Of a stretch of DNA of 41,350 nt, positions 665 to 32,340 are shown piece by piece. The DNA comes from a virus (taxonomy: Duplodnaviria; Heunggongvirae; Uroviricota; Caudoviricetes), in the IMG/VR virus record IMGVR_UViG_3300045988_014834, positions 1 to 41,350 of that record; one strand, given 5' to 3'. Both the position numbers and the translations under genes were made by a program. Position 1 is the stretch's first letter, and the number at the start of each line of letters is the position of its first letter. Below the pieces are notes generated by a model, which did not search any database, was not told the DNA's origin, and was given only the letters and a program-made list of their open reading frames with translations.

Positions 665-693
665 TTGCACACCCCAATATAATAGGGTACTAT
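665..693 (+). promoter_or_regulatory. Early promoter: -35 TTGCAC, 17-nt spacer, -10 TACTAT
   Basis: Sequence TTGCACACCCCAATATAATAGGGTACTATTCAC, nearly identical copies at 8523 and (reverse) 20188-20216. Confidence 0.6.
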
Positions 694-723
694 TCACTCA
701 CACCAACAATGAAGGAGTTTAAA

Positions 724-7632: not shown

Positions 7633-7711
7633 CAGTATGTCCCCTGGACGTTGGAATCCGGGCCACCCGGATTTACATGTCAAGAATAAATTATTCCAAC
7701 ATGCAAGGCAA

Positions 7712-7975
7712 CTATTCCAGAATATTCCTCACGTAATCCTGCAACATGAACACTTTCAGCCGCAGCTGCCGTACACATTCGGCGTTCTGAACGTCGATGG
7801 CTAAATCCTCGTCAGCGTCGCTACTTGGCATCGCCAGTTTGCACGGCGGCTGCATCATCGTCGTATCCGGAGATGGAATTGGCGTTTGCGACGGCGCGGG
7901 ACTTGAGTTGCACGCGCTCAGGGTCAAAAGTGCACACGCTGCGACCAGGCGTTTTGATGTACTTAACGACTTCAC
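7712..7975 (-). CDS. o-spanin (Rz1-like lipoprotein), 87 aa
   Basis: Signal peptide with lipobox LSAC, Pro-rich mature region, starts inside the upstream gene in a different frame. Confidence 0.5.
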   Translation of the reverse strand: MKSLSTSKRLVAACALLTLSACNSSPAPSQTPIPSPDTTMMQPPCKLAMPSSDADEDLAIDVQNAECVRQLRLKVFMLQDYVRNILE

Positions 7976-8207
7976 GGGTAATCACCTCTGATTTCGTCTT
8001 GCCTTCGTTGTCAGCGGCTGCGGCCTTTGATTCATCCTGCTGCTGCCGTTGTGTTTTCTTCGCTAACTCAGCCTGGGCTTTCTGCTGTTGCTGCGAAACG
8101 AGATTCGCCCGGCCTTCGCTCCAGCCGCTGCGGTACTGATAGATGCCGTGTGCGTAAGCCAGGATGATGAAACATGCTCCTGCTACGACAGTTGCTTTAA
8201 GATTCAT
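7821..8207 (-). CDS. i-spanin (Rz-like), 128 aa
   Basis: N-terminal transmembrane helix then charged Gln/Lys-rich region; embeds the lipoprotein ORF. Confidence 0.5.
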   Translation of the reverse strand: MNLKATVVAGACFIILAYAHGIYQYRSGWSEGRANLVSQQQQKAQAELAKKTQRQQQDESKAAAADNEGKTKSEVITREVVKYIKTPGRSVCTFDPERVQLKSRAVANANSISGYDDDAAAVQTGDAK

Positions 8208-8306
8208 GTTTCCCCTTTCTCGATAAGTAAAGCCCCGCCTTAAAGCGGGGCGCTAGTCCTTATCATTTAAACATAGAAACGGCGTAATCTCAGTAAACCA
8301 GTTACT

Positions 8307-8460
8307 TTTTACACAAGCAATAGAGTATGGCCCTTCCGAACGCGTCAGCGTAACTACACTCAGGACTTACGTCCCGCTCCGTTACCTGCCCGCGCCGCGG
8401 TCGCTTGTTCACACTTCACAAGCTCAGGAGGAGCTTAGCACACTTTTAGTGAAAAGTCAA
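8307..8460. repeat. Conserved ~150-bp noncoding element, copy A (second copy 20382-20525)
   Basis: About 75 percent identity to copy B with compensatory changes in a hairpin (GGAC-TTAC-GTCC here, GTGCC-TAAT-GGCAC in B). Confidence 0.6.
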
Positions 8461-8522
8461 CTATTCGAATAGTTTATTCCAACATTTACAATTTAGTGGA
8501 ATAACTGGAATACATAAATAGT

Positions 8523-8551
8523 TTGCACACCCCGATATAATAGGGTACTAT
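8523..8551 (+). promoter_or_regulatory. Early promoter copy (TTGCAC N17 TACTAT) driving the methyltransferase
   Basis: TTGCACACCCCGATATAATAGGGTACTATTCAG. Confidence 0.6.
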
Positions 8552-8579
8552 TCAGTTAACTTGAACAGCAGGAGTTAAA

Positions 8580-9308
8580 ATGTTTACTTTGAAACGTGGG
8601 GATTGTCTGGAGTTGATGCATGACGTACCAGATAAGAGTGTAGACCTTATTTTATGCGATTTACCTTATGGTACGACGCAAAACAAATGGGATACGGTAA
8701 TACCTTTCGATGCCCTATGGGGCCATTACATGCGTATTTCTCGCGGTGCTATTGTGCTAACAGCAGCGCAACCTTTCACTAGCGCGTTGATTATGAGTAA
8801 TGCTAAATTGTTCAAATACTCGTGGGTTTGGGATAAGGCAAATAGCACTGGATTCCTTAACGCTAAAAAGCAACCTTTACGCCGAACAGAGGACGTGGTT
8901 GTATTTTATGGCTCACAGCCAACCTATAACCCTCAAATGGAAGTTAGAGGTAAGCCCCGTAAGAAAGGTGGGTATATTAAAAAAGACGGCTCTGACAACT
9001 ATGGGTCTTTTAAAAGTGTAGAATCTGTTAGTAATGATTACTACCCCACCAATTTGATAGAAATATCTAATGCTAATAGGTCGGAAAAGTGCCACCCCAC
9101 CCAAAAACCAGTAGCGTTGATGGAATACCTGATTAAGACGTATACAAACGAAGGGGATACAGTTCTTGATAACTGTATGGGCAGCGGGACGACCGGAGTT
9201 GCGTGTGCGAACACAAACCGGAAGTTTATAGGCATGGAGTTAGACCGTGATTACTTCCGTATAGCCAGAAGACGCATATCTGAAGCATATAAAACTAAGG
9301 CCCCTTAA
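8580..9308 (+). CDS. Orphan DNA methyltransferase (N6-adenine/N4-cytosine beta-class), 242 aa
   Basis: Catalytic-motif region DLILCDLPYG followed later by the AdoMet motif HPTQKP...VLDNCMGSGTT; no restriction enzyme partner nearby. Confidence 0.85.
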   Translation: MFTLKRGDCLELMHDVPDKSVDLILCDLPYGTTQNKWDTVIPFDALWGHYMRISRGAIVLTAAQPFTSALIMSNAKLFKYSWVWDKANSTGFLNAKKQPLRRTEDVVVFYGSQPTYNPQMEVRGKPRKKGGYIKKDGSDNYGSFKSVESVSNDYYPTNLIEISNANRSEKCHPTQKPVALMEYLIKTYTNEGDTVLDNCMGSGTTGVACANTNRKFIGMELDRDYFRIARRRISEAYKTKAP

Positions 9309-9320
9309 GGGGCCTTTTAT
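9295..9320. terminator. Bidirectional hairpin terminator (AAGGCCCC-TTAA-GGGGCCTT)
   Basis: Perfect hairpin between convergent genes. Confidence 0.65.
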
Positions 9321-9781
9321 CATTCTGGCTTAGTGACCTTCGCTGCTTTACTGACAGCCTCTACGCCGTCAGCATCGGTAACTTTAACGAAGTATCCACC
9401 GACGGCATTAACCGTCAGAGACAACGCCTCTTCAGGGGCGTTGACTACTTCCTTCCCGTCTTTGTACCAGGTAAGCGCATACGGAGCTTTACCCGCCTTA
9501 ACTTCGACAGAGATAGTGGCGCTGCCGTCTGCCAGTTCGACGTCTTTTGGTTGCACTGAGAAATACACGTCGCCAGCATCAGCCAGATACGGAATTTCAT
9601 AAAGCATACCAGCCGCGGGCAGCGCAATGCCGGTCTTGTCTGCAAACGGCATATCGTCTACTGGCGTACCTAGTACACTTTCGTCTTCAATAAACACCAC
9701 GTTCTCGCCGGAGCCAGACACGCGGGCGTACTGGACTACGCGACGCGACGGTACATCAGTTACTTTGAAAAATCCCATCAT
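9320..9781 (-). CDS. Structural protein with beta-rich (Ig-like?) C-terminal domain, 153 aa
   Basis: Position after the head morphogenesis gene; composition only. Confidence 0.3.
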   Translation of the reverse strand: MMGFFKVTDVPSRRVVQYARVSGSGENVVFIEDESVLGTPVDDMPFADKTGIALPAAGMLYEIPYLADAGDVYFSVQPKDVELADGSATISVEVKAGKAPYALTWYKDGKEVVNAPEEALSLTVNAVGGYFVKVTDADGVEAVSKAAKVTKPE

Positions 9782-10857
9782 TATTCCTCTTTCAGATAAT
9801 CAGCAACACGTTTATCGAGTTCCGCCATCTGCTTAAGCGTGAGCGGATTCCAAAAACCATCTACAGATATTACGCGAAACTCTTCCGGTGATATACCGCT
9901 GTTGCGGAAAATCTTACCGCGCACCGGGCCGAGCGCCTGGTCCTGGAACCACGCTGGTTGTTGTTTCAGGAACTCGTAGTAAGTGGTGTCTGCGCTTACC
10001 TGAGTACCGCCGTCCGCACCCTTAGCCGCTCGTTTCGCACCTTTATCGAGGAAGTCGAACTCGGAACTGATTACCGGAGCTGTGCACGATCGACAGTTAG
10101 GATGGGCGGGGGGCATCGGCCCCTTACCAATTTCCCACGTCATTCCGTCTCTGGCTCTGCAAATCGTACTGGTACGACTGTCCAGCGTCGACACCCACTC
10201 GTATTTCTCGATGATGTCGTCGTTCTGGCGATACGTCTCGTTGCGGGCTTCGTTGGATACGTGGGACAGCGCGGTGCGGATTACGGTAGCGGCATTACGT
10301 TCAGAGATGTCCGCCAGCCCACCAGCGCCAACAACATTCTTAACAATCTGCCGTGTCGTTTGACCTTGTACAAAGCCCATCTTAACGCCGGTTACCAGGC
10401 GCGATACTTCTGTTTCACCCCAGCCATCCATCAGCTTAGTGAAATCGACGGGCTTGTCGCTTAACGATAAGGGTTGAAACTCGGCGGCGGCCCACACTTG
10501 TTCGGCGGTTGGCGTAACAAATTCCGCATTTACGTTGGCGGTAAGTGTCTTTACATTCCACCCGGCCTCATATGCCGCCAGTTCCTTAAGGTCTTCTGTC
10601 AGCTTTGTTTGCCAGTCGCCGGTAAGTCCGGTTAGTGCTTCTTCCAGGTCGCGTAACAGTTTATTCAGCCGTGCGGTGCTGCGACCGTCGTCGCCAAATA
10701 ACAGCACCTGCCGTTTGATTTCATCTCGCATTTCCTGAATGAGCGGTGCGAGGTCTTTCACTTCGCCTGATGCGGTGCGTTGTAGCCATATTTGGTGGCT
10801 GATTAGTGATGTAAGTAAGCTCATAGATAAACCCTGTGGCGCTAAAGTTAATAGCAT
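9781..10857 (-). CDS. Head morphogenesis protein (SPP1 gp7 / Mu F-like), 358 aa
   Basis: Follows the portal gene; conserved C-terminal Cys-containing region (ICRARDG...HPNCRSC). Confidence 0.65.
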   Translation of the reverse strand: MLLTLAPQGLSMSLLTSLISHQIWLQRTASGEVKDLAPLIQEMRDEIKRQVLLFGDDGRSTARLNKLLRDLEEALTGLTGDWQTKLTEDLKELAAYEAGWNVKTLTANVNAEFVTPTAEQVWAAAEFQPLSLSDKPVDFTKLMDGWGETEVSRLVTGVKMGFVQGQTTRQIVKNVVGAGGLADISERNAATVIRTALSHVSNEARNETYRQNDDIIEKYEWVSTLDSRTSTICRARDGMTWEIGKGPMPPAHPNCRSCTAPVISSEFDFLDKGAKRAAKGADGGTQVSADTTYYEFLKQQPAWFQDQALGPVRGKIFRNSGISPEEFRVISVDGFWNPLTLKQMAELDKRVADYLKEE

Positions 10858-15858: not shown

Positions 15859-16347
15859 TCAACCTTTCACCGCGCGCCCAATAGCCTCAGCCTCCCGCCA
15901 CGGTTTACCGTCGAATAGTGCAAGACGTCCCGCGGTACGGCGACGCAGGCCGAGTAATGGTTTGCCGTTCTGGTTGATGAACAGCGCCAGCTTAGCCCGC
16001 AGCGTCGAGATATCGCCGGAACGCAGCGCCTTACCTGTGCCAGTAGTAGCGGCAATCACACCAGCACCTGCGTTGTATACCAGGTCACACACTGCGTCGA
16101 ACTGCGCCTGGGTCAGTGAATGGTGTGCTGCTGCATCAACCGCAACTACAGCCTTAGCCATATCACGATTCAGTAACAGGAGGCCTTGCCCCTTCGTAAT
16201 CTTCTGCCCTTCGTACACATGAGGGCCATAGCTTCCGTAGCCTATGGTTAAGTATTTTTCCGAAGGTGTCGCGCGGTATGCGGTCCCGCGGAATCCCTCG
16301 AACGCAGCGGTAAAATGCAATCCATTATCTGAAATGTTTCGAGACAC
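15859..16347 (-). CDS. Endolysin (GH24 lysozyme, T4 E / P22 gp19-like), 162 aa
   Basis: Catalytic region FEGFRGTAY...TIGYG and conserved C-terminal motifs; adjacent to holin-like genes. Confidence 0.85.
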   Translation of the reverse strand: MSRNISDNGLHFTAAFEGFRGTAYRATPSEKYLTIGYGSYGPHVYEGQKITKGQGLLLLNRDMAKAVVAVDAAAHHSLTQAQFDAVCDLVYNAGAGVIAATTGTGKALRSGDISTLRAKLALFINQNGKPLLGLRRRTAGRLALFDGKPWREAEAIGRAVKG

Positions 16348-18276: not shown

Positions 18277-18307
18277 ATTCTGTCTCTCCTCTCGTTCGTG
18301 TAAATGA

Positions 18308-18336
18308 ATAGTAGCCTATTCTATCTTAGCGTGCAA
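18308..18336 (-). promoter_or_regulatory. Promoter TTGCAC, 17 nt, TACTAT (early-type, divergent spacer)
   Basis: Minus strand TTGCACgctaagatagaataggcTACTATTCA. Confidence 0.5.
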
Positions 18337-26522: not shown

Positions 26523-26552
26523 TTGACAACCTGAATAGTTAGCTATTATAGT
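26523..26552 (+). promoter_or_regulatory. Middle promoter TTGACA ... TATAGT with palindrome AATAG-N4-CTATT (26534-26547)
   Basis: ttgacaacctgAATAGttagCTATTatagtt. Confidence 0.5.
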
Positions 26553-30233: not shown

Positions 30234-30425
30234 ATGAAACACGAATATGACCGCAAGCCAGCCCGTGACATCGTACCAGGTGACATGATTTTCAACGTTA
30301 AGACACGCCAGCCTGTTGCCGTTGATACGGTGTTCGTCGAGTCGAACGGTAAACTGGTTATCGAGGACGTAACCGGTAACGTTACGGCGTTTGGGCGTAA
30401 AGAGTTAGTTCTGGTGTTGAAATGA
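30234..30425 (+). CDS. Hypothetical protein, 63 aa
   Basis: AAGGAAT upstream of the ATG. Confidence 0.4.
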   Translation: MKHEYDRKPARDIVPGDMIFNVKTRQPVAVDTVFVESNGKLVIEDVTGNVTAFGRKELVLVLK

Positions 30426-30919
30426 ACAAATTAACTAGAAGGCCTGATATTGAGGAGGCGAAACGTCTTCTTAACTATGACCCCGAAACAGGCGTATTTA
30501 CACGGAAAGTAAGCATAAAAGGTAGGAATGCGGGGGAGGTAGCCGGGGGTCCAAACGACAAAGAATACATAGTTATCACCGTATCTGGTGTAAGAATAAA
30601 AGCCCACCATCTGGCATGGGCTTTCGTCTACGGAGAATATCATAATGGTGAGCTTGACCATAAAGACCGTAACAGGGCTAATAACGCCATAAATAATATA
30701 AGGCCAGCAACCAGGAGCCAGCAGATTCAGAACCGAGACTGCGCATCACATAACACTAGCGGTGCGATAGGGGTTTACCAAATACCCTCTGGCAGGTGGC
30801 GCGCCAGAATAGGCGTCAATAACAAATACATCCACCTTGGCTATTTTGACACTATAGAAGAAGCGTCGCGCGTATACCAAAGAGCCGCGGAAATATACTT
30901 CGGGGAGTTCAGGGCATGA
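30422..30919 (+). CDS. HNH homing endonuclease with C-terminal AP2-like DNA-binding domain, 165 aa
   Basis: HNH motif HH...ELDHKDRNRANN..NN; C-terminal GVYQ..SGRWRARI...LGYF.T.EEA..Y. Confidence 0.65.
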   Translation: MNKLTRRPDIEEAKRLLNYDPETGVFTRKVSIKGRNAGEVAGGPNDKEYIVITVSGVRIKAHHLAWAFVYGEYHNGELDHKDRNRANNAINNIRPATRSQQIQNRDCASHNTSGAIGVYQIPSGRWRARIGVNNKYIHLGYFDTIEEASRVYQRAAEIYFGEFRA

Positions 30920-32340
30920 GTAAGTTTAGGCGCAGGGAATATCAGAAAATAATGACGTCGTTTATGTTACGGCACCCACGTTGCAATATCTGGTGCGGCA
31001 TGGGAGGGGGTAAAACCTCCTCTACTATGTGGGTGCTCAACAGATTGTTTCGCAACGGGCAGCTTACTGAAGAGGACCGAGTGTTAATTCTGGCTCCTTT
31101 ACGTGTTGCGTCAGGTACGTGGCCAGCGGAACAGGCACGTTGGAATTTCCCATGCCTGAGTGTCGTAGATGCCACCGGTTCAGAGAAGCGCCGCATCGCG
31201 GCGCTGGAGTCCGACGCTAACGTGGTATGCACCAACTATGAAGTTATCGAGTGGCTTATTGACTATTACGGCAAAGACGACTGGCCTTTCACCGTTATCG
31301 TTGCCGATGAAAGCACGAAGCTAAAATCATTCCGCAGCCGTTCTGGCGGTAGCAAGCGGGCAAAGGCGCTTAGTAAAGTGGCGTTCGGAAAGGTTAAGCG
31401 TTTCATTAACCTGACGGGCACACCGTCGCCAAACGGCCTCAAGGACTTGTGGGGGCAGAACTGGTTTATCGACGCTGGCGAGCGACTCGGTTCTTCATAC
31501 ACGGCATTCACCGACCGATGGTTTAACTCGGTGCAGAAAGGTAAGTCGGCTATGGCGCGGGGGTATCACGCACGACCTGGTGCAGATAATGAAATTCACC
31601 AGAAGATGAAGGACATTAGTCTCACGATTGACGCCGCCGAGTGGTTCGGATGCGAAGCGCCGATTATTGTACCGGTTGAAATTGACCTGCCTAAGAAAGC
31701 ACGTCAGGCGTATATCGATATGGAGGAGAAGCTATTCGCGGAACTGGAGAGCGGAGAAGTCGAAGCGGCTAACGCCGCGGCGAAGACCTCAAAGTGTTTG
31801 CAGATTGCGTCTGGTGCCGTGTATGTGTCAGGACCAGACGGAGAAGCAACCAAAGACTGGGAGAAAGTGCACGACACGAAACTGGATGCGCTGGAGTCGA
31901 TTGTTGAGGAGTTACAGGGCGCGCCGTTACTTGTGGCCTATCAGTTCAAGCACGAACTGGAGCGCATCCTTAAGCGGTTCCCGCAGGCACAGGCGTTTGC
32001 CAAAGGTGTGAAGGGTAATAAGCAGATGGAAGCGTGGAACCGCGGTGAAATCGAAATATTATGCGTACACCCTGCGTCAGCCGGGCATGGTTTGAATTTG
32101 CAGGACGGCGGACATCATCTGGCGTTTATTTCGCAAGGGTGGAACCTTGAGCACTATTTGCAGGTTGTCGAGCGCATAGGCCCAGTTCGCCAGAAACAGG
32201 CGGGCCACGAACGCCCTGTGTTCCTTTACCACATTGTTGCTAAAGACACGCTGGACGAGGTTGTTGCCGCGCGTACCGACGAGAAGAAATCGGTACAGGA
32301 AGAATTGCTTAATTACATGAAGAGACGAGGTAAGAAATGA
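30916..32340 (+). CDS. SNF2/DEAD-like superfamily 2 helicase, 474 aa
   Basis: Walker A GMGGGKT, DEST box, LTGTPSPN motif. Confidence 0.7.
   Translation: MSKFRRREYQKIMTSFMLRHPRCNIWCGMGGGKTSSTMWVLNRLFRNGQLTEEDRVLILAPLRVASGTWPAEQARWNFPCLSVVDATGSEKRRIAALESDANVVCTNYEVIEWLIDYYGKDDWPFTVIVADESTKLKSFRSRSGGSKRAKALSKVAFGKVKRFINLTGTPSPNGLKDLWGQNWFIDAGERLGSSYTAFTDRWFNSVQKGKSAMARGYHARPGADNEIHQKMKDISLTIDAAEWFGCEAPIIVPVEIDLPKKARQAYIDMEEKLFAELESGEVEAANAAAKTSKCLQIASGAVYVSGPDGEATKDWEKVHDTKLDALESIVEELQGAPLLVAYQFKHELERILKRFPQAQAFAKGVKGNKQMEAWNRGEIEILCVHPASAGHGLNLQDGGHHLAFISQGWNLEHYLQVVERIGPVRQKQAGHERPVFLYHIVAKDTLDEVVAARTDEKKSVQEELLNYMKRRGKK

Follow-up and report, generated by a model that had tools for sequence, protein, structure and literature searches.

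A solitary beta-class DNA methyltransferase with a DLPY motif, apparently carried as cargo in a fixed slot of a Kagunavirus-type phage

The closest characterised relatives of the enzyme considered here come from 936-type lactococcal phages. Researchers detected only adenine methylation in the methylomes of lactococcal phages, and the DNA of two of these, Phi145 and Phi93, proved resistant to HphI (Murphy et al. 2014, PMC4190342). A plasmid expressing mtPhi145-1 was HphI-resistant only upon induction, and the motif GGWG(m6)A was assigned by the authors to M.Phi145I; CCCA and GTAG were extra motifs without an assigned enzyme in the Phi93 and Phi145 methylomes (PMC4190342). M.Phi145I is encoded at 781-1638 of the Phi145 genome (KM091444), and its translation contains MILCDLPYGTTACTWD, with the motif MILCDLPYGTT. 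A homologue was found in a virus record of the Caudoviricetes (IMGVR_UViG_3300045988_014834), whose 41,350 nucleotides are referred to below as the window. Aligned over 259 columns (about 228 query residues), the two proteins share 44% identity (E 3e-71).

Over 20.6 kb, the best matches of the window backbone are Escherichia and Shigella Kagunavirus phages (87-89% identity), and by this similarity the backbone is that of a Kagunavirus-type siphophage of the Guernseyvirinae. The analysis yielded the integrity of the gene, the family and fold of its product, the alignment and frequency of its catalytic motif, selection, base composition, the architecture of the insertion slot, and the absence of a restriction enzyme. 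The gene and its motifs are as follows.

8580..9308, plus strand: coding sequence of an orphan beta-class DNA amino-methyltransferase, 242 aa plus stop, with an ATG start (ORF listing)
8570..8574, plus strand: ribosome-binding site AGGAG, 5 nt before the ATG (read from the sequence)
8658..8669, plus strand: motif IV, codons GAT TTA CCT TAT for D27-L28-P29-Y30 (read from the sequence)
9093..9110, plus strand: HPTQKP motif, residues 172-177, preceding the SAM-binding motif (phmmer alignments)
9168..9194, plus strand: motif I region D-N-C-M-G-S-G-T-T, residues 197-205, with the SAM-binding GxG loop (alignment)

The product scores 105.2 bits (E 6.4e-30) against Pfam family PF01555 (N6_N4_Mtase), whose gathering cutoff is 26.7 bits, and also matches the PHROG 67 DNA methyltransferases (4e-71) and the PADLOC type II methyltransferase model MTase_II (7e-78). 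Searched by phmmer against solved beta-class enzymes, it returned E-values of 5e-19 to 6e-13. In these alignments D27-L28-P29-Y30 occupies the same columns as the DPPY of CcrM, M1.HpyAVI, and M.BceJIV, the HPTQKP motif is identical in CcrM and M.BceJIV, and MGSGTT (residues 200-205) lies opposite FMGSGTT of M1.HpyAVI and FFGVGTT of CcrM. The order of the motifs is thus the circularly permuted one of the beta class, with motif IV N-terminal, HPTQKP following, and the GxG loop of motif I at the C-terminal end. An earlier note on this DNA, made from the sequence alone, had proposed this layout and had read the catalytic tetrapeptide as D-L-P-Y; the phmmer alignments and the PF01555 match bear out the first point, and residues 27-30 the second. 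D27, P29, and Y30 supply the Asp/Asn/Ser and the Pro-aromatic pair that define motif IV, and the strict P-P dipeptide of the (D/N/S)-P-P-(Y/F/W) signature is replaced by L-P. The signature is a consensus and not a criterion of homology. As 102 of the 142 aligned family members and the active M.Phi145I deviate from it in the same way, the L-P is no bar to beta-class membership. An alignment of 45 homologues showed D27 and P29 to be invariant and L28 and Y30 to be at least 90% conserved; also invariant were G31, T33, W37, and D38 next to motif IV, H172, T174, K176, and P177 of the HPTQKP region, and D197, G201, S202, and T204 of motif I.

The fold agrees with this assignment. An AF2 model of the protein (pLDDT 83, pTM 0.81, with pLDDT >90 in the catalytic core) matches the Rossmann-like class I methyltransferase fold of the solved members, and Foldseek returned probability 1.0 to M.BceJIV (8URK), CcrM (6PBD), M1.HpyAVI (5HFJ), M.MboIIA (1G60), and M.RsrI (1EG2). 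Motif IV follows a strand formed by residues 21-27 (pLDDT about 92). The presumed target-recognition stretch (about residues 110-170) is short, and pLDDT falls to 49-65 over residues about 121-170. PF01555 was the only significant family in Pfam; Dam-type profiles (alpha-class Dam and the T1/HP1-type Dam, PF05869) gave no match. Membership in the Dam-type alpha class was also considered and is ruled out by the beta-class motif order.

The gene stands alone on its strand between late genes, in the following setting.

7712..8207, minus strand: spanin genes of the Rz/Rz1 type on the left flank, at 7821-8207 and 7712-7975 (PHROGs 2536 and 5672)
8208..8569: highly conserved non-coding region (roughly 350 nt) between the spanin start and the cargo slot
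8523..8555, plus strand: promoter-like element TTGCAC-N17-TACTAT (8523-8551) with an embedded TATAAT at 8536-8541 (recognised by its repeats and conservation)
9297..9316, both strands: bidirectional hairpin terminator AAGGCCCCTTAAGGGGCCTT, with a perfect 8-bp stem and scored as a terminator on both strands
9320..9781, minus strand: gene for a Hoc-like head decoration protein on the right flank, running towards the methyltransferase gene (PHROG 3945, 3.7e-85)

Leftward beyond the spanins lie scaffold and major capsid genes, and rightward beyond the Hoc-like gene those for head morphogenesis and the portal. The terminator overlaps the methyltransferase stop codon and lies just after the stop of the Hoc-like gene; like the upstream non-coding region and the promoter-like element, it is part of the phage backbone. 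As the earlier note had stated, the gene runs opposite to its flanking late genes, the spanins and the Hoc-like gene both being on the minus strand, and has no endonuclease partner: a scan of 26 of the larger ORFs, which took in most of the larger ones on the likely coding strands and some of the structural ORFs, revealed no restriction endonuclease. The sole nucleases in this set were an HNH/AP2 homing endonuclease, a DUF2800 PD-(D/E)XK protein of the replication module, and a weak VRR-NUC match. As far as the scanned ORFs show, the methyltransferase is solitary and not part of a restriction-modification system. A chromosomal homologue, P0081, sits in a prophage-like context without a recorded restriction enzyme domain. 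Two further observations concern the surrounding genome. The homing endonuclease (HNH_3 plus AP2 domain, 30422-30919, plus strand) lies directly upstream of an SNF2-type helicase gene (30916-32340) and is likely a mobile insertion in the replication module. The spanins (7712-8207, minus strand) lie between head decoration and scaffold/capsid genes, about 8 kb from the lysozyme gene (15859-16347), and lysis functions are therefore split between two places.

Comparison with related phages indicates that the position, rather than the methyltransferase itself, is the conserved feature. The gene is present in only 14 of 182 related phage records, at 91-93% nucleotide identity, and all of these carriers are Salmonella Jerseyviruses (S100-S123, ER23, and dunkel) in which it is annotated as an adenine-specific methyltransferase or 'dpnA'. 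No Escherichia phage record in the phage collection searched carries the cassette. In other relatives the place is taken, with the orientation unchanged, by a RusA-like resolvase (VIPECOMC04), by endonuclease VII (LSPA1), or by an 84-aa ORF (phiWAO78-1). The slot of K1H looks empty, yet has an unannotated membrane-like ORF of about 35 aa. Whatever the cargo, it always lies on the plus strand between the spanins and the Hoc-like gene and begins at the same start position. An alignment of six phages showed homology to continue with hardly a gap across the upstream non-coding region, to break at the ribosome-binding site and start codon, and to resume at the GGCCCC/GGGGCC terminator stem, from which it follows that the methyltransferase is one cassette among several that can occupy the fixed expression slot; the GGCCCC...GGGGCC stem itself is kept in relatives with different cargo. 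Slot occupants in further relatives include genes annotated as sliding clamp and small hypothetical ORFs.

The base composition of the gene points to a foreign origin, its GC content of 43.0% lying below the 51.0% of the window and the 52-55% of the genes on either side. A dN/dS of 0.075 relative to the copy in phage S100 indicates strong purifying selection. Judged from these comparisons, the gene is horizontally acquired cargo in a fixed slot of Guernseyvirinae phages. Donor searches found no match to the gene among complete E. coli genomes, and the best matches on plasmids, at ≤57% identity, were in Firmicutes phage-plasmids. Papers on Jerseyvirus and Kagunavirus methyltransferases, and on the one Kagunavirus transcriptome found, that of K1B4, contained nothing on the slot. 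What is modestly new is an Escherichia-type backbone bearing a cassette otherwise seen only in Salmonella phages. The slot has a conserved control region on one side and a terminator on the other. An anti-restriction gene seems to have moved by way of it between Salmonella and Escherichia phage lineages, which is relevant to choosing or engineering therapeutic phages for host range.

The upstream boundary of the slot carries a sequence that recurs in the genome.

678-697 (plus strand), 8536-8555 (plus strand), 18304-18323 (minus strand), and 26531-26550 (minus strand): copies of the 20-mer TATAATAGGGTACTATTCAG

These 4 copies in the window compare with 0 expected. Three of them share a longer consensus, CTTGCACaCCCC-ATAtAATAGGgTACTATTCA, readable as TTGCAC-N17-TACTAT, and each extended copy lies about 28 nt upstream of a ribosome-binding site and ATG. 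One precedes the methyltransferase gene, another a 68-aa membrane ORF (709-915) with a phosphoesterase-like ORF of 376 aa (954-2084) behind it, and the third a 46-aa ORF (18276-18136), the first in a cluster of small ORFs running leftward. The element is invariant in relatives with other cargo, and in fBC-Eco01 the same spot is annotated as the PHIRE-predicted 'phage promoter2'. A sigma-70 consensus scan of 7700-9900 on both strands returned no promoter, TTGCAC-N17-TACTAT falling below threshold, and a canonical promoter belonging to the methyltransferase gene is rejected by this empty scan. The repeats probably represent a phage-specific promoter class. As the promoter-like element is shared by relatives with other cargo, it is part of the backbone and not the gene's own. 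Of the earlier note's claim that the gene has its own early promoter and terminator, the terminator at 9297-9316 is borne out, and the wording on the promoter is inexact. The ORFs at 709-2084 form a second plus-strand island (68-aa membrane ORF and 376-aa ORF) inside the minus-strand tail module, which may be another accessory-gene slot; the 954-2084 ORF has a weak match to calcineurin-like phosphoesterases.

The promoter-like element lies within the non-coding region 8208-8569, which is far better conserved than the surrounding genes. Over the first 300 columns of an alignment of 6 phages it hardly varies, and in 179 of 181 Kagunavirus and Jerseyvirus phage records the match extends over 80% or more of its length, in nearly every case with 90-99% identity. 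The region contains a hairpin (8232-8251), a GC-rich block near 8360-8400, a 16-nt perfect palindrome, AACTATTCGAATAGTT, at 8459-8474, and one small ORF of 36 aa (8302-8412, minus strand). Its folding signal is weak (z -1.6 and -1.8), and an Rfam search of the region returned only a chance-level match far below its gathering score; a known RNA was rejected on both counts. The palindrome ACTATTNNAATAGT was also considered as a genome-wide operator or regulon site and discarded, since its one exact copy in the window is no more than chance. The promoter and leader for the operon of spanin, scaffold, and capsid genes might lie in this region.

The earlier note had singled out DLPY as a noteworthy variant that might hint at altered specificity or mechanism, and had allowed that finding DLPY to be common in many aligned homologues would count against this. 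Such alignments do show DLPY to be common and unremarkable. Among the 120 best homologues drawn from a collection of 5.8 billion proteins (61-100% identity), 109 carry DLPY. A pattern count over the 150 best representatives of 50%-identity clusters (43-75% identity, out of 1.84 billion proteins) gave 108 with DLPY and 24 with DPPY or DPPF. A MAFFT alignment of 142 sequences, comprising such cluster representatives together with homologues from cultured phages and restricted to comparable length, contained 102 DLPY, 27 DPPY, 3 DMPY, and 3 DLPF members, and single members with DIPY, DVPY, DIPF, and DPPF. The position of residue 28 underwent about 25 state changes on a neighbour-joining tree that is rough (the representatives are star-like) yet shows a clear interleaving of DLPY and DPPY; P, L, M, I, and V swap repeatedly, and the nearest neighbours of most DPPY members are DLPY proteins. 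The subfamily signature, C/A-D-L-P-Y-G-T-T-x-x-x-W-D, is present in the window protein. DLPY also occurs in cultured phages of Xanthomonas, Geobacillus, Flavobacterium, and Lactococcus, and DPPY in a cyanophage, in Enterococcus, Brucella, and Vibrio phages, and in more distant homologues. These counts identify DLPY, at the level of sequence, as the normal form of motif IV in a very large phage subfamily. A full-text search for papers discussing DLPY in methyltransferases returned none that were relevant, and the explicit count showing DLPY as the majority state of motif IV in the subfamily is modestly new.

How might a Leu be accommodated at this position? In M.TaqI-type enzymes, the backbone carbonyl of the residue that follows the Asp makes the contact with the target amino group. 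Because the contact is of this kind, leaving the side chain free to vary, it is plausible that Leu can replace Pro in motif IV. That L28 instead marks an altered catalytic mechanism or specificity relative to the DPPY enzymes is very unlikely. Such a reading draws on the departure from the textbook (D/N/S)-P-P-(Y/F/W), on the DPPY of all solved relatives aligned here, and on the empty full-text search, but L is the majority residue, and the swapping of L, P, M, I, and V between near neighbours suggests a near-neutral exchange, not a functional switch; moreover, the DLPY enzyme M.Phi145I gives ordinary sequence-specific protection, with only adenine methylation detected (PMC4190342). Being both the majority state among homologues and the motif of an active enzyme, DLPY is not remarkable. 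It is extremely unlikely that the gene is an inactive remnant whose motif degenerated by decay: the departure from the canonical motif and the foreign base composition could be read in that way, but the gene is full length, retains all the invariant residues of the subfamily, and has a dN/dS of 0.075, its AF2 model is confident over the catalytic core, and a DLPY relative is active. A bolder proposal takes the DLPY clade, whose size is 100 or so 50%-identity clusters at the least and probably far more, as a functionally distinct beta-class branch in which a more flexible catalytic loop containing Leu and a very short recognition region would allow relaxed or multi-motif adenine methylation. 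The Phi93 and Phi145 methylomes, with their extra motifs CCCA and GTAG, give it some room, and if it were true a single phage protein of 240 aa could counter several restriction systems together; we nevertheless regard it as a distinctly improbable idea. Since D-L-P-Y is catalytically competent, what does mislead is a strict P-P rule for motif IV, under which phage methyltransferases of a large and widespread group would be overlooked or wrongly labelled.

The preferred reading, which we consider quite probable, is that of a functional solitary beta-class methyltransferase, carried as exchangeable cargo, that methylates phage DNA, most probably as m6A, against restriction. Transcription would start from the promoter-like element of the backbone, run in the direction opposite to that of the late genes, and stop at the shared bidirectional terminator. 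The enzyme, whose DLPY retains the catalytic Asp as well as the second Pro and the Tyr, would modify a short motif in phage DNA while that DNA replicates during infection, and the progeny DNA would thereby resist the restriction enzymes of the next host. We infer here the m6A chemistry, the anti-restriction role, and the function and timing of the promoter. The earlier note had likewise proposed protective self-methylation, and this is still the most reasonable role because the homologue M.Phi145I protects DNA in this way (PMC4190342). The enzyme might instead act mainly in regulation or in some other form of counter-defence, through gene timing, packaging, or masking from non-classical defence; orphan methyltransferases such as Dam and CcrM are regulators, and P1 Dam methylation affects packaging (as cited in PMC4190342). 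We find this distinctly unlikely for a gene that is dispensable and patchy (14/182 records), in a slot that otherwise holds unrelated genes; so uneven an occurrence is more in keeping with an accessory for host range than with a core regulator. As to chemistry, PF01555 spans both N6-adenine and N4-cytosine enzymes, M.PvuII and the rotifer N4CMT appear among the sequence and fold matches, and a homologue in Geobacillus phage E3 is annotated as a cytosine methylase. Motif IV of m6A beta-class enzymes begins with Asp, and that of N4C enzymes typically with Ser. The window motif starts with Asp, m6A enzymes alone make up the best matches by sequence and by fold (CcrM, M1.HpyAVI, M.BceJIV, M.RsrI, and M.MboIIA), and the best NCBIfam matches are adenine-specific models; in the characterised member of the subfamily, only adenine methylation was detected (PMC4190342). 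N4-cytosine methylation thus appears unlikely, and N6-adenine chemistry is probable, to judge from the Asp of the motif, the m6A enzymes among the nearest sequence and fold relatives, and the analogy to the characterised relative.

The described systems frame the window enzyme at several distances. CcrM (6PBD), M.BceJIV (8URK), M1.HpyAVI (5HEK/5HFJ), M.MboIIA (1G60), and M.RsrI (1EG2) share its fold and motif order (query TM-score 0.6-0.73), with the HPTQKP motif and the GxGTT SAM loop conserved. However, these solved m6A enzymes are only 22-26% identical to it, all carry DPPY, and have unrelated target-recognition parts; CcrM has an extra C-terminal domain, and several are members of restriction-modification systems or chromosomal regulators, not phage cargo. 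M.EcoGII, a non-specific beta-class adenine methyltransferase of an E. coli prophage, is likewise solitary and borne by a phage or prophage; its catalytic motif is N-terminal, its TRD central, and its FxGxG C-terminal (PMC5778455). Unlike the window protein, it is 349 aa long and has the canonical DPPY, and it was dropped as a model for these reasons, as was the non-specific Hia5 for being an alpha-class enzyme. Non-specific activity is not implied for the window protein.

M.Phi145I and M.Phi93I of the Lactococcus 936-type phages (Skunavirus) belong to the same subfamily of small beta-class orphan phage methyltransferases. M.Phi145I has the identical C-D-L-P-Y-G-T-T and the same HPTQKP...G-S-x-T-T layout, and both enzymes are also cargo, placed where a structural or packaging module has a hot spot for insertions, and lack an endonuclease partner. 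They differ in having a Firmicutes host and a slot between the terminase subunits, on the same strand, and M.Phi145I is longer, its 285 aa including about 32 residues more in the stretch presumed to recognise the target. Because that stretch (residues about 110-165) differs by 32 gap positions, the GGWG(m6)A specificity is not transferable to the window enzyme, whose target is likely different from that of M.Phi145I. Prediction of a recognition sequence was given up, since no characterised enzyme shares the recognition region. Closest of all are the putative adenine-specific methyltransferases of the Salmonella Jerseyviruses S100-S123, ER23 (labelled 'dpnA', by annotation only), and dunkel, which represent essentially the same gene (about 95% protein identity) in the same spanin/Hoc-like slot and orientation. 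Their hosts are Salmonella, whereas the window backbone is nearest to the Escherichia/Shigella Kagunaviruses. The window gene is thus a new copy of an already annotated cargo methyltransferase of the Guernseyvirinae, from a subfamily with one characterised representative.
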